Of a stretch of 64,000 nt of DNA, positions 50,914 through 62,993 are shown piece by piece (position 1 is the first letter of the stretch; every line of letters begins with the position of its first letter). The DNA lies in NCBI GenBank assembly GCA_041660345.1, contig JBAZWP010000001.1, positions 1 to 64,000 of the forward strand, read 5' to 3'. A program made the translations under genes and the position numbers. The DNA comes from Minisyncoccota bacterium (GTDB lineage Bacteria > Patescibacteriota > Minisyncoccia > Phycocordibacterales > UBA9973). The notes below the pieces were generated by a model. That model was not told where the DNA came from. It was given only the letters and a program-made list of their open reading frames with translations, and searched no databases.

Positions 50914-51895
50914 TTGCTTTAGTTGGTTTTGGTTTAGACTTCGGTCTCTTCTTCTGTTTTCTGCCCCTAGTATTAAAGTTTTCAGTTACATACATCTCTG
51001 AATCACTCACTACACCCTTGAAAAATTCACCAATTGGGTCTTCACCACCACGCTCAACTATTCTCGGGTCTAATTTATGGTATGTTCTTACTTTCTTATA
51101 TTTATTTTGATGCTTAGGTTGTACTGTATGGTTTCTAACAGGGTATGGGTTACCCTTCATATCAAATAGTGTCCAACCACCTCTTGTATTTTCGTTATTA
51201 GTTTGTGATTCAGGTTCTTCTTCTATATTTTTATACTTATCAATAAGGTCAATACACTTATCGCCCCAATTATCAGGTGGTTCATCTAAAACTAATTTTT
51301 TACGCTGAATTCTTTTTAAGGTCTTAATGTAATTTCGATTACCATATTTATCTAATAACCATGTCTTCCAAAATGCGTACCATACTTTAAATTCATTTAG
51401 GTAATCATCTTTTGAAATTATTCGCATATCACCACGAAGACTTCTTTCAAAATTTACCTTATAGTTAGCTGTTAAATGAATTAGTTGCATTAATTTATCT
51501 TCGCGTTCTCTTATATCTTTTAAAACACTATCAGGAACAGCACTACAATGCTTTTCTAAATAATTTATATTATAATTAGCTATCTCTATAGCTATAAATA
51601 TATCTATTTCAGACATATCTGTAGGGTCTACATCATCTAAGTATGAATGTTTAAGTTTGTAGCGCTCCATAGCATTATCATCAATATATAATACGACAGA
51701 TTTAGCTACATTATTTGCATATTGTTTGGCGTATTCTTTTAAACCATTTTTAAATTTACGAGTATCTTCTTTAGAAAGACCACCTGACTTTTTAATTGCA
51801 TCTAATGGTGTTAAAATTTCCCCGTTACTTTTTGTACTACACGCAATTTTAGTACATAATTCTGCATCTAATTTTTTAAAACTTTTATAGCTCAT
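50855..51895 (-). CDS. hypothetical protein with basic C-terminal tail
   Basis: 346-aa ORF ending in RGRKQKKRPKSKPKPTK. Confidence 0.35.
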   Translation of the reverse strand: MSYKSFKKLDAELCTKIACSTKSNGEILTPLDAIKKSGGLSKEDTRKFKNGLKEYAKQYANNVAKSVVLYIDDNAMERYKLKHSYLDDVDPTDMSEIDIFIAIEIANYNINYLEKHCSAVPDSVLKDIREREDKLMQLIHLTANYKVNFERSLRGDMRIISKDDYLNEFKVWYAFWKTWLLDKYGNRNYIKTLKRIQRKKLVLDEPPDNWGDKCIDLIDKYKNIEEEPESQTNNENTRGGWTLFDMKGNPYPVRNHTVQPKHQNKYKKVRTYHKLDPRIVERGGEDPIGEFFKGVVSDSEMYVTENFNTRGRKQKKRPKSKPKPTKAIGKERDMSINSVINRNKNE

Positions 51896-53055
51896 ATTTC
51901 TTGATATACAAAATTTTTATTTTGAAAGTTAGTCATTTCTACTTTATTATTTGAATAATTAAAGAAATCTGGATTAATTGGTATTTTACCACCACCGCCA
52001 GGCGCATCTATAACAAATGATGGTATAGCATAACCACTTGTATGACCACGTAAACCTTTTATAATATCGATACCATCCTGAACTTTAGTCCTAAAGTGTG
52101 CCGATCCCGTAATGGGATCACATTGATAGATGTAATAAGGTCTTACGCGTCTTATTAAAAGCTTATGCATTAATGATTTCATTGTTTCTATATCGTTATT
52201 TATACCTTTTAATAGTACAGTTTGGCTACCCAATACTATCCCAGCATTAGCTAGCATATCACAAGCATTCTTATTCTCAATTGTGCATTCATCTGGGTGT
52301 GTAAAATGAACCGACATATAAACAGGATGATACTTTGAAATCATTTTAACAAGTGTTGGCGTGATTCTTTGAGGTAAAACAACAGGTATCTTAGTTCCTA
52401 TGCGAATTATCTCAATATGTGGTATATTTCTTAAACTTTTTAACAGATACTCCAAATGTTCATTGGAAAGTGTTAATGGATCACCACCTGAAAGTATCAC
52501 ATCTCGAATCTGGGGCGTTTTCCTTATGTAGTTGATAGATTCGTCCCAATTCGCTATATTAATCGTCTGGTGGTTACCTACAGCTCGACTGCGTGTACAA
52601 AAACGACAATATGATGAGCATATACCAGTCGTTAAGAATAACGCACGGTCTGGATACCTATGTACAATTCCTTCACAAGGTGAAGTTAAATCCTCTGATA
52701 ATGGGTCGTCTGACTCATTATTTCCTTGTATGAACTCATTACAAGTGGGTATCATCGTAGACCTTAGTTTATTATCATATATCAGTGACATATAATAAGG
52801 CGTTACAGCAAAAGGTAGGATATATTTACTATTTAAAAAGGCGGATTCTTCGTTATGTGATAGTCTTGTAATCCTTTTTAACTTTTCAAGTGTGGTAATT
52901 CTATTTTTAAATTGCCACTTCCAGTCGTTCCATTCTCTAAGTGATATATCTGAGTAAAATTGTTTTTTAAAATTGTAAGTTTTGGTATTTATACTTGGAG
53001 GTTTCTCATCAACCTCACCTTTAATAAGTGATTCAGCACATTCAGCAACTTCCAT
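51892..53055 (-). CDS. lysine 2,3-aminomutase-like radical SAM enzyme
   Basis: CSSYCRFCTRS (CxxxCxxC) radical-SAM cluster motif plus ILSGGDPL motif typical of the KamA/EpmB family. Confidence 0.8.
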   Translation of the reverse strand: MEVAECAESLIKGEVDEKPPSINTKTYNFKKQFYSDISLREWNDWKWQFKNRITTLEKLKRITRLSHNEESAFLNSKYILPFAVTPYYMSLIYDNKLRSTMIPTCNEFIQGNNESDDPLSEDLTSPCEGIVHRYPDRALFLTTGICSSYCRFCTRSRAVGNHQTINIANWDESINYIRKTPQIRDVILSGGDPLTLSNEHLEYLLKSLRNIPHIEIIRIGTKIPVVLPQRITPTLVKMISKYHPVYMSVHFTHPDECTIENKNACDMLANAGIVLGSQTVLLKGINNDIETMKSLMHKLLIRRVRPYYIYQCDPITGSAHFRTKVQDGIDIIKGLRGHTSGYAIPSFVIDAPGGGGKIPINPDFFNYSNNKVEMTNFQNKNFVYQEI

Positions 53056-53100
53056 TTTATTCCTTTCATGAATAGATGTTATTAAAGTTCGATTAAGAAA

Positions 53101-53493
53101 TTATATATTAGAAAGCGATTGCATTATAGCGCTAGCTTGGGCTTTATCTGTACACATGAATTTAGCATTAACATCAACCGTGAAATATTTATTAAACTCA
53201 TCTCCAGTAACGGTTATACTTGTAATATTTTCTTTTGCTAATACAGGCTTATATCTTTCTTTAAAAACATAGTCACTAAGCACTTGTGTAGTGCTATCTG
53301 TAAGCACTATCCAATCATTTAAATCAACAAGTAAATTTGAATGACTTAATTCAAATGACTTATCACTAACCGGTGTAATATACATTGCACGTTCGCTTAG
53401 AAATTTGAATAATTTCTCAAAGTCACCAGTCCACTGAAAAGCGTCAAATTCTTTTTTAGATATATATTTCATTTTAATCCTCTCATATACCAT
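53101..53493 (-). CDS. hypothetical protein
   Basis: 130-aa ORF. Confidence 0.3.
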   Translation of the reverse strand: MVYERIKMKYISKKEFDAFQWTGDFEKLFKFLSERAMYITPVSDKSFELSHSNLLVDLNDWIVLTDSTTQVLSDYVFKERYKPVLAKENITSITVTGDEFNKYFTVDVNAKFMCTDKAQASAIMQSLSNI

Positions 53494-61823: not shown

Positions 61824-61825
61824 AT

Positions 61826-62023
61826 TTAATTTATTGATTCAGTCTTAAACCACTTATTTACATCAGAAACTCTATACCATATTCTATTATCCTTTTTAAT
61901 AAATTTAGGGCCCCTTCTAAGACTTCTCCAATTTGCAAGTGTTTTAAGTGCATAAGCGCTGACAGCCGACAGCTCTTCAGGTGATATTAGGCGATTACCA
62001 TTTAATCCAACTGTTTTACTCAT
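61826..62023 (-). CDS. AlpA/excisionase-like HTH DNA-binding protein
   Basis: LISPEELSAVSAYALKTLANWRSLRRGPKFIK..RIWYRVSDVNKW resembles the phage AlpA/MerR-like HTH_17 pattern. Confidence 0.45.
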   Translation of the reverse strand: MSKTVGLNGNRLISPEELSAVSAYALKTLANWRSLRRGPKFIKKDNRIWYRVSDVNKWFKTESIN

Positions 62024-62256
62024 TTTATATTCTCCTTTTTTAGTTGTTCGATAATTTCTTTGGTTTTTACTTTCTTGACTCTTTTCTTAGTCTCGTGACT
62101 GCATAATGGGCAGTCGGTTATTCCACAATCAAATGGGTGTTTTTTATTAAACCTATTTGGTTCGCTGATTTCTATATCTGAATGTAATAATTTTAAGAAT
62201 CTTATCCTTCTATTAATAATTGTTCTATCGCGCCGCCTTCGCATTGCTTTATCCAT
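62020..62256 (-). CDS. basic small protein
   Basis: 78-aa ORF, Arg/Lys-rich termini, CGITDCPLC. Confidence 0.3.
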   Translation of the reverse strand: MDKAMRRRRDRTIINRRIRFLKLLHSDIEISEPNRFNKKHPFDCGITDCPLCSHETKKRVKKVKTKEIIEQLKKENIK

Positions 62257-62993
62257 TATTTAATACCCTTATGAAAGTTTTTTCTATTTTCAGCAACAGC
62301 ATCTGTTGATTTTTTTAAGCTATCAAATGTACCTGCATCACTCCAAAATATTTCTTCCCTTATTGTTGAATAGTATAAACGACCATCCTTTAGGTACATA
62401 TTATTAACATCTGTGATTTCTAATTCACCTCTCTGTGATGGTGTTAATGCGTCGATATACTCCCATACTTGACTGTCGTATTTATATAAACCAGTAACAG
62501 CTAGGTTTGATTTAGGATGCTTAGGCTTTTCAATAATCTCAGTTAATAAGTTATTCTCTATTGTAGCAACACCAAATCTTTCAGGGTCACTGACTTCTTT
62601 TAAAAATACAGACGCATGATAAGATACAGGTAATTTAGATGCATTAATAAGCTTACCAAATACATTATCACCAAGTATAACAGTCATGTTATCATCTTTA
62701 ACAATATTTCGACATAATCCTAGTGCATATGCGATACCACCAGCTTTAGATTGATGCACATAGCAGAAGTTGGCTCCAAATTGGGACCCATCACCTAATA
62801 GGTTAATAATGTCACCAACTGAATTACCACCAGTTGCTATAATGATATCCTCAATACCAAAATCCTTTACTAGTGTAAGTATTGGATAGTATATCATAGG
62901 CATATCATGTACTGGTAACAAATGCTTGTTAGTTACTAAAGTAAGTGGGTGTAATCTCGAACCACTACCACCAGCTAAAATAATACCCTTCAT
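62256..62993 (-). CDS. rfbA: glucose-1-phosphate thymidylyltransferase
   Basis: MKGIILAGGSGSRLHPLT nucleotidyltransferase motif, followed by LGDN and sugar-binding segments. Confidence 0.8.
   Translation of the reverse strand: MKGIILAGGSGSRLHPLTLVTNKHLLPVHDMPMIYYPILTLVKDFGIEDIIIATGGNSVGDIINLLGDGSQFGANFCYVHQSKAGGIAYALGLCRNIVKDDNMTVILGDNVFGKLINASKLPVSYHASVFLKEVSDPERFGVATIENNLLTEIIEKPKHPKSNLAVTGLYKYDSQVWEYIDALTPSQRGELEITDVNNMYLKDGRLYYSTIREEIFWSDAGTFDSLKKSTDAVAENRKNFHKGIK

Follow-up and report, generated by a model that had tools for sequence, protein, structure and literature searches.

Enzymes related to those encoded by an 11-kb minus-strand stretch (positions 51892–62993) of the window, i.e. 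the whole 64-kb stretch of contig DNA analysed here, are known from several described systems. Radical S-adenosylmethionine (SAM) enzymes of the aminomutase type act in thymidine hypermodification, which reportedly uses a 5-hydroxymethyldeoxyuridine kinase, amino-acid transferases and a pyridoxal phosphate (PLP) and radical-SAM isomerase. The product of the first two steps of the Rml pathway, dTDP-4-keto-6-deoxyglucose, is a genuine branch point. The gene rfbB is listed as a viral auxiliary gene, and phage rfb genes are usually read as serving to remodel envelope glycans (PMC11662467). The hisA/F Pfam family is also listed among viral auxiliary genes (PMC8940887). The R2K clade of ATP-grasp enzymes (Cdc123, R2K.2 and R2K.3) is predicted to ligate amino acids to proteins in phage–host conflicts (Burroughs et al. 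2015, PMC4431377; PMC7824862), and those of jumbo phages are regarded as sporadic protein-modifying ligases (PMC4431377, PMC7824862). No literature on a phage-encoded lysine 2,3-aminomutase was found.

The stretch encodes five recognised enzymes of this kind: a lysine 2,3-aminomutase (KamA), a 4,6-dehydratase of dTDP-glucose (RfbB), an R2K-clade ATP-grasp ligase, a HisA-type barrel and a glucose-1-phosphate thymidylyltransferase (RfbA). Its source is probably an uncultivated low-GC myophage of the jumbo type, the 64 kb probably being only a part of a much larger genome. A previous sequence-only reading proposed that the five enzymes belong to one pathway that would lead to a modified sugar, a decorated nucleotide or a DNA modification. 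The explanation favoured here, with a probability of roughly two in three, is that the stretch is a mosaic of auxiliary metabolic genes that were captured independently and do not constitute one pathway. As far as sequence comparison goes, both the gene neighbourhoods and the whole genomes show separate histories for each enzyme.

Linkage of the five enzyme genes in other genomes

The closest complete relative found, the 485-kb uncultured phage LR745208, shares with the window a syntenic block encoding a Volactin-like protein and structural proteins, an RNA ligase, RlaP and the R2K enzyme. Of the five enzymes, the latter alone is common to both, and no relative of KamA, RfbA, RfbB, HisA, MetK, SAHH, CoaD or MazG was found in the whole genome of LR745208. 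When compared by megablast with 50,697 phage records, the 11-kb stretch gave zero matches. Within the phage collection of GenBank, R2K is found in one record only (LR745208) and KamA relatives in 20 records that do not include it. RfbA and RfbB are common among phages, with relatives in 156 and 306 records. Three IMG/VR contigs carry KamA relatives, and scans of the same resource with the HisA and R2K proteins returned no close relatives; no phage relative of HisA was found.

The 20 records with KamA relatives include three huge uncultured phages (52–55% identity to the window copy) and, at about 200 kb each, phages of Pseudomonas putida (nine) and of Vibrio (two) with 36–38% identity; among the others are bacterial contigs and short fragments from metagenomes. 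When seven phage KamA loci were compared with the window, the sole common neighbour was one MazG-like gene, found in locus L001; a weak MazG homolog lies near KamA in LR756500. The phage KamA neighbourhoods differ among themselves as well, except for the Pseudomonas–Vibrio pair. Neighbours of about 480–500 aa in loci L001, L005 and L006 were considered as a conserved partner of KamA and rejected, as they are not homologous to each other.

The Pseudomonas–Vibrio pair carries a module of its own, exemplified by the approximately 200-kb phages vB_PpuM-Lauda of Pseudomonas (L003, 1281–13164) and vB_VcorM_GR7B of Vibrio (L004, 5915–12966). Besides KamA, it comprises two QueC-like genes and several genes for 300–700-aa proteins of no recognised family, and it lies beside topoisomerase genes. 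A possible role of this module is the modification of nucleotides or DNA with the use of beta-lysine.

A further 160 KamA loci (L020–L179, 48–60% identity) were taken from genome and metagenome collections, and all window open reading frames (ORFs) were searched by tblastn against the resulting 179 loci with flanks of up to 10 kb. A KamA relative is carried by 169 of the 179. Beside these 169 KamA genes, there is no relative of RfbB, R2K, HisA, MetK or SAHH, and a single, weak RfbA-like match. One locus (L018), which combines KamA with two ATP-grasp genes and a barrel of the His_biosynth family, was considered as a homologous cluster and rejected: with 271 bits to hisF the barrel resembles HisF, the ligases are of the Ddl-like kind, and there is no match of either to the HisA or R2K genes of the window.

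The same picture is obtained from the R2K side. The search yielded 1382 R2K homologs, many of them on phage-like contigs of 100–370 kb. None of five distinct R2K loci, whose contigs measure 22–368 kb, carries KamA, RfbA, RfbB or HisA within its neighbourhood; these neighbourhoods are unlike one another, and no conserved partner or substrate gene of R2K was found in them. Taken together, the lack of recurrent linkage in about 180 loci and in LR745208 argues against a single pathway, and the genes are indeed scattered or absent in relatives, an outcome that the sequence-only reading itself had regarded as telling against it. As a separate observation, genes related to NAD and ADP-ribose recur near phage R2K genes, encoding NAMPT, NUDIX and PARP proteins in L008, a Macro protein in L010 and a NADAR protein in L012. 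This recalls an association of R2K genes with ADP-ribosylglycohydrolases that has been published (PMC4431377).

Predicted activities of the five enzymes

All five enzymes that had been proposed for this stretch are real minus-strand ORFs with intact catalytic motifs. KamA passes the cutoff of the KamA family model TIGR00238 (324.1 bits, cutoff 199.2) and stays under that of the AblA equivalog TIGR03820 (443.5 bits, cutoff 525.4), probably because its C-terminus is short. The cluster cysteines C146, C150 and C153 of its CSSYCRFC motif align to C125, C129 and C132 of the lysine 2,3-aminomutase (LAM) of Clostridium subterminale (PDB 2A5H). R155 and K357, which correspond to Arg134 and Lys337 of 2A5H, are invariant in 167 of 167 aligned homologs, and D313 and D350, corresponding to Asp293 and Asp330, are conserved. 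We take Lys337 of 2A5H to be the lysine that forms the Schiff base with PLP, Arg134 to bind the carboxylate and Asp293 and Asp330 to bind the epsilon-ammonium group of lysine. The two aspartates reportedly discriminate the substrate and are said to be replaced in glutamate 2,3-aminomutase. The best cellular matches of KamA are bacterial L-lysine 2,3-aminomutases (55–59% identity). KamA thus looks like a canonical lysine 2,3-aminomutase, i.e. a beta-lysine synthase. The complete set of lysine-, PLP- and cluster-binding residues argues against a nucleobase-directed isomerase; together with the position of the protein in the bacterial LAM clade, it also weakens the link to DNA-base hypermodification that had been drawn from its aminomutase character.

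RfbB passes the cutoff of the equivalog TIGR01181 (449.9 bits, cutoff 365.1), carries the motifs GGAGFIG (NAD-binding GxxGxxG), STDEVYG (catalytic T-D-E) and YSASK (YxxxK) and shares 46–52% identity with RmlB proteins from phages and bacteria. The best solved relative of RfbA is the 245-aa RfbA of Bacillus anthracis (3HL3/4ECM; 250 bits over 234 residues, E 2e-73). RfbA carries the GGSGSRL motif and scores under the cutoff of TIGR01207, the equivalog of the long form (231.6 bits, cutoff 360.65). The earlier suggestion that RfbA and RfbB together would yield dTDP-4-keto-6-deoxyglucose follows from family membership and from established knowledge of the Rml enzymes, and is retained.

HisA scores 197.6 bits against TIGR00007, under the equivalog cutoff of 228.95. 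Its residues 1–235 form the barrel, which aligns with solved HisA and PriA structures (PDB, E 4e-27). The motifs AID (N-terminal Asp), LALD (Asp), TNINKDGT, GGGIR and SGG are all aligned, and both phosphate-binding sites are kept. Its homologs are cellular HisA proteins of at most 41% identity; the top scorers are HisA–HisF fusions, and the one fusion whose context was examined lies within a complete his operon. The protein ends in a tail of about 75 aa (58544–58768) with four cysteines (CSEC...GC...NC), which matches no homolog, the alignments covering only about 76% of the query. This tail may serve in metal binding or in interactions. Judging by its conserved motifs, HisA probably retains the activity of N'-[(5'-phosphoribosyl)formimino]-5-aminoimidazole-4-carboxamide ribonucleotide (ProFAR) isomerase.

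The ATP-grasp protein matches two R2K families, PF14243 (R2K_3, 66.2 bits, cutoff 26.3) and PF18299 (R2K_2, 54.3 bits, cutoff 26.2), and is filed here under the R2K clade, with no subfamily given. K108, K115, D226, E239 and N241, i.e. two lysines and the magnesium-binding D...E.N, are invariant in 16 sequences. A search of the PDB gave no match at the sequence level. The AlphaFold2 model (predicted local distance difference test, pLDDT, 91.5) adopts an ATP-grasp fold whose nearest structures are ArgX/LysX, DcsG, RimK and Cdc123, and this closeness fits the published prediction of protein ligation. The model points to an ATP-dependent amide ligase, for which the carboxylate of a protein is the probable acceptor of an amino acid. 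The Cys-rich ORFs that flank the R2K gene display no LysW-like similarity, and the 67-aa one has no match in the PDB.

Under the mosaic explanation, the following scenario can be drawn. Host-derived metabolic genes would have been taken up one at a time and would now lie among orphan ORFs in a co-directional array, their products, which come from at least four unrelated pathways, most likely acting separately on the metabolism of the host. Judging from family membership, the short-form RmlA and RmlB would make dTDP-4-keto-6-deoxy-D-glucose from glucose-1-phosphate and dTTP, the later sugar steps being left to host enzymes or to parts of the phage genome beyond the contig; their purpose would be to supply or redirect 6-deoxyhexose for envelope glycans. 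KamA, with its substrate-binding residues intact, would convert L-lysine to beta-lysine. The R2K ligase, whose fold is taken from the model, would attach an amino acid to the carboxylate of a presumed protein target. HisA, with its catalytic and phosphate-binding motifs intact, would carry out the ProFAR isomerase step. MazG, MetK, SAHH and CoaD would be further independent additions.

Alternative explanations

About 81 of the 160 further KamA loci share an arrangement in which KamA is followed by two Ddl-like ATP-grasp ligases, with a GNAT gene (about 160 aa) coming next in 63. This conserved operon is found in Planctomycetota, Alphaproteobacteria, Spirochaetota, Bacteroidales, Bdellovibrionota and others, examples being the isolate genome of Arsenicitalea aurantiaca (L027, 11459–13939) and a metagenome-assembled genome (MAG) of Bdellovibrionota (L055, 11127–13646). 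No description of a KamA–ATP-grasp operon was found in the literature that could be searched, and its gene content implies a putative novel amide product containing beta-lysine. In a neighbour-joining tree, the KamA of the window is sister to that of a phage-like contig (L019), and the two nest in an 80-member clade dominated by the operon type, outside the clade of lysine fermentation. The contig L019 is of interest in its own right: it carries auxiliary genes of polyamine synthesis at 15604–17950, encoding a carboxynorspermidine decarboxylase (nspC, 404 bits) and a carboxynorspermidine synthase, and it also encodes an intein-containing ribonucleotide reductase.

Some of these data weigh against the mosaic explanation. 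The nesting within the KamA–ATP-grasp clade suggests that this KamA lineage probably once fed ATP-grasp ligases, i.e. that the beta-lysine made by this type of KamA was ancestrally handed to them, and an ATP-grasp gene, though of a different family from the operon ligases, lies 2.8 kb from KamA in the window. Moreover, the 64-kb contig is probably no more than a small part of the genome, so that RmlC and RmlD, transferases or acceptor-specific ligases could lie elsewhere, and the closest relatives are distant (25–59% protein identity), which makes absence from them weak evidence about this phage. KamA and R2K could be a two-enzyme module in which beta-lysine would be ligated to a protein of host or phage at a carboxylate, for instance to a translation factor, rfb and HisA being unrelated to it. 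The two genes belong to the same array, about half of the loci in the KamA clade pair KamA with two ATP-grasp genes, the R2K model resembles ligases of amino acids to protein carboxylates (LysX/ArgX, RimK), and modification of proteins is predicted for R2K enzymes (PMC4431377). Nevertheless, this is considered unlikely: R2K is not homologous to the Ddl-like ligases of the operon at E < 1, none of the five R2K loci has KamA within 10 kb, and about 170 KamA loci, the sister phage locus L019 among them, have no R2K. The large phages give the same answer, LR745208 having R2K without KamA and LR756500, LR756501 and LR756503 having KamA without R2K, and the Cys-rich ORFs that flank the ligase gene are not LysW-like. 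A more elaborate version, in which KamA would derive from the widespread and apparently undescribed bacterial KamA–ATP-grasp–GNAT operon and would have been paired anew with an R2K of phage lineage for beta-lysylation of proteins during infection, is distinctly unlikely.

The participation of all five enzymes in one pathway, whether towards a modified deoxy- or amino-sugar or towards an amino-acid-decorated nucleotide with a use in DNA, at the receptor or as a small molecule, appears very improbable. The genes are co-directional and close together, dTDP-4-keto-6-deoxyglucose does allow such branching, and the incomplete genome leaves room for missing steps. However, the five genes have no conserved linkage elsewhere, as described above, and the partners expected of such a pathway are missing from the window: tblastn with the RmlC and RmlD proteins of phage vB_EcoM_Schickermooser gave nothing better than E 0.23, and Pfam scans of 60 window ORFs revealed no aminotransferase, relevant kinase or base transferase, nor the thymidylate-synthase-like hydroxymethylase and glycosyltransferase for which the sequence-only reading had suggested a search. 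In addition, the lysine site of KamA is complete, the nearest relatives of HisA are ordinary enzymes of histidine operons, and 21 ORFs stand between RfbA and RfbB, in contrast to the rml operons of phages. It is just as improbable that KamA alone serves a DNA or nucleotide modification route, as it perhaps does in the jumbo phages of P. putida and Vibrio. The syntenic module shared by L003 and L004, whose KamA copies also keep the lysine-binding residues, gives this idea its interest, but the window carries no homolog of any other gene of that module, the KamA proteins of the Pseudomonas and Vibrio phages are only 36–38% identical to that of the window, and QueC is all that Pfam recognises in the module.

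Lastly, the contig, a sequence of 64,167 bp that the window covers almost completely, bears the label of a Candidatus Paceibacterota MAG although its content is phage-like. If it were a cellular fragment of such a genome, the enzymes would be ordinary cellular genes, which the name of the MAG and the low GC content (the window is AT-rich, with 31% GC), a value that would suit this group, could be taken to favour. This origin is hardly credible, as the contig encodes a 907-aa tail sheath whose nearest relatives are those of three jumbo or huge phages, Tunturiibacter phage Tunturi_5 (308 kb), LR745208 and Bacillus phage G, and shares its syntenic structural block with LR745208. It also encodes a Toprim/primase-like protein, an RNA ligase and a MazG-like pyrophosphatase among a large majority of orphan ORFs (about 80% in the region). 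Furthermore, it is divided into two strand-polarised blocks, with genes on the plus strand up to about 17.8 kb and on the minus strand over the remainder, neither a tRNA search nor an Rfam search found tRNA or rRNA genes on it, and no genome of the candidate phyla radiation appears among the 80 best KamA loci. The Paceibacterota label is a binning assignment and not evidence of host; it reflects either a misbinned phage or a hint of the host. The independent capture of metabolic genes by a phage therefore remains the preferred explanation.

The gene array and comparison with described systems

The five enzyme genes are embedded in a long minus-strand array (Table 1). As had been noticed from the sequence, small ORFs are interleaved with them, about 20 orphan ORFs lying between the enzymes, a MazG gene lies inside the region, and the SAM-cycle genes metK and SAHH are found directly beyond its border. 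None of the interleaved ORFs gave a significant Pfam match, and a subset that was also scanned against PHROG had no match there.

Table 1. Features of the window in order of position
Feature	Position	Strand	Evidence or remark
Volactin homolog, actin family	2700–3785	+	PF25216, 235 bits; upstream of sheath/structural genes
RNA ligase and calcineurin-like phosphoesterase	21475–22080, 36054–36791	-	Spans given in that order; same strand as CoaD and RlaP
804-aa protein	29819–32233	-	Shoulder domain of Major Vault Protein (PF11978, 105 bits), vault repeat, Band7/SPFH
406-aa SPFH protein	32297–33517	-	Adjoins the 804-aa vault-domain protein
CoaD, phosphopantetheine adenylyltransferase	43998–44471	-	TIGR01510, 175 bits (cutoff 103.3)
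RlaP nucleotidyltransferase	45911–47005	-	Same array, downstream of KamA
SAHH	47969–49219	-	PF05221, PF00670
MetK	49216–50385	-	PF00438, PF02772, PF02773
KamA, lysine 2,3-aminomutase, 387 aa	51892–53055	-	PF04055, PF12544 (LAM_C); CSSYCRFC, GGDPL
Orphan ORF between KamA and RfbB, 130 aa	53101–53493	-	No significant Pfam match; no PHROG or NCBIfam match
RfbB, dTDP-glucose 4,6-dehydratase, 323 aa	53469–54440	-	TIGR01181; GGAGFIG, STDE, YSASK
Orphan ORF, 87 aa	54444–54707	-	No Pfam match; paralog of 57090–57332 (blastp E 8e-9)
Orphan ORF, 306 aa	54700–55620	-	No Pfam, NCBIfam or PHROG match
Cys-rich orphan ORF, 67 aa	55623–55826	-	Directly downstream of the ATP-grasp gene; no Pfam match
R2K-clade ATP-grasp, probable amide ligase, 266 aa	55814–56614	-	PF14243, PF18299
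Seven overlapping orphan ORFs (71, 94, 80, 70, 86, 82 and ~180 aa)	56607–58557	-	No Pfam match
HisA-type (beta-alpha)8 barrel, 309 aa	58544–59473	-	PF00977, 188 bits
340-bp gap between main called ORFs	59644–59983		Holds two small ORFs (73 and 72 aa) that overlap on the minus strand
Five orphan ORFs (137, 70, 68, 160 and 87 aa)	59984–61494	-	No Pfam match; 137- and 160-aa ORFs also no PHROG match
MazG-like nucleoside triphosphate pyrophosphatase, 109 aa	61494–61823	-	phrog_3301 'pyrophosphatase', E 5.5e-28
RfbA, glucose-1-phosphate thymidylyltransferase, short Firmicutes-type, 245 aa	62256–62993	-	PF00483, 166 bits

Between 47,969 and 63,346, consecutive genes overlap or abut (-59 to +45 nt), the 340-bp gap, in which no Rfam match was found, being the lone sizeable interruption. 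In the run of seven orphan ORFs, start and stop codons overlap by 1–32 nt, the start of the approximately 180-aa ORF having been taken from the gene call on a Logan contig (L015). A 2.1-kb Logan fragment from SRR18595301 is almost the same in sequence as the window. No terminator-like site was found on the minus strand in 47.5–64 kb, and promoter-like sites are no commoner than in shuffled sequence; these two results indicate that the co-location of the genes reflects a phage gene array and not a dedicated operon. No riboswitch or other Rfam family was found. The third-position GC of the enzyme genes (0.13–0.24) is at the level of their orphan neighbours, which argues for long-resident phage genes and against an assembly chimera or contamination. 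The recognised enzyme and repair-type genes span about 36–63 kb of the array. Since CoaD, RlaP, SAHH and MetK extend the same array, the 11-kb 'cluster' would be a slice of a larger accessory region and not a discrete unit. The 130-aa ORF between KamA and RfbB was considered as a hidden cupin (RmlC- or FdtA-like) and rejected for want of a significant Pfam match, its single-sequence AlphaFold2 model being unusable (pLDDT 39).

Other features of the window were noted in passing. The array contains small-ORF paralogs, namely the pair in the 11-kb stretch (Table 1) and, elsewhere in the window, a four-member family of 145–178-aa proteins (27081–27617, 34151–34621, 42400–42837 and 42840–43307). 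A 76-nt unit is tandemly duplicated at 63353–63504 in perfect register, with copies 99% identical, and overlaps a small ORF (63413–63589), slightly outside the 11-kb stretch. The arrangement around the Volactin homolog is kept in LR745208 (337420–338382), in synteny and with 37% identity. The pair of vault-shoulder and SPFH proteins is unusual for a phage; Band_7 genes recur near R2K in loci L008 and L012.

The carriage of host-derived auxiliary metabolic genes by large phages is a known pattern, which the window extends by one more gene-rich example; neither a lysine 2,3-aminomutase nor a stand-alone HisA is common as phage cargo. It also calls for caution, as the closeness and shared direction of genes in a phage array do not by themselves point to a pathway. 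If phage enzymes do ligate beta-lysine to proteins or nucleic acids, this would be a new kind of manipulation of the host by a phage. The bacterial KamA operon and the phage KamA–QueC module may merit more attention than the 11-kb stretch itself.

The described systems closest to each part of the stretch differ from it in several ways. Of the dTDP-L-rhamnose pathway (RmlA–D), the window holds the first two steps only. Phapecoctavirus phages such as vB_EcoM_Schickermooser carry a contiguous rmlB-A-C-D operon, to whose products the RmlB and RmlA of the window are 46% and 47% identical; unlike in this operon, the window genes lie 7.8 kb apart. Whereas HisA belongs to histidine biosynthesis, the window copy stands alone, with no other his gene in the window. 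The R2K.3 family has ExGD in its last strand (PMC4431377), where the window enzyme has E239-L-N241-D242. From phage thymidine and cytidine hypermodification, the hydroxymethylase, the 5-HMUDK-type kinase and the base transferases are not among the window ORFs scanned with Pfam; an aminomutase-type radical-SAM enzyme is shared with the thymidine system, but KamA keeps its site for free lysine.

Among systems that make beta-lysine, the beta-lysylation of elongation factor P by EpmA and EpmB differs in both components: the window KamA scores 227.5 bits against the EpmB model TIGR03821, below its cutoff of 369.3, and no EpmA-type protein resembling aminoacyl-tRNA synthetases was found in the Pfam scans. 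As for the AblA/AblB osmolyte pathway with its adjacent GNAT acetyltransferase, no window ORF has a GNAT Pfam match, and a hidden Markov model (HMM) of the operon GNAT found nothing at E < 1. Nor do the HMMs of the two ligases (grA and grB) of the bacterial KamA operon match any window ORF at E < 1. The KamA of the window thus differs from LAM in its Clostridium setting by being phage-borne and devoid of the usual partners, whether fermentation genes, AblB or two ATP-grasp ligases and a GNAT protein. It is also shorter (387 aa versus 416–450 aa for Clostridium-type LAM), LAM_C being matched at the first 56 of its 127 positions only, and it aligns with the C. subterminale enzyme 2A5H over 358 residues (E 3.5e-125).

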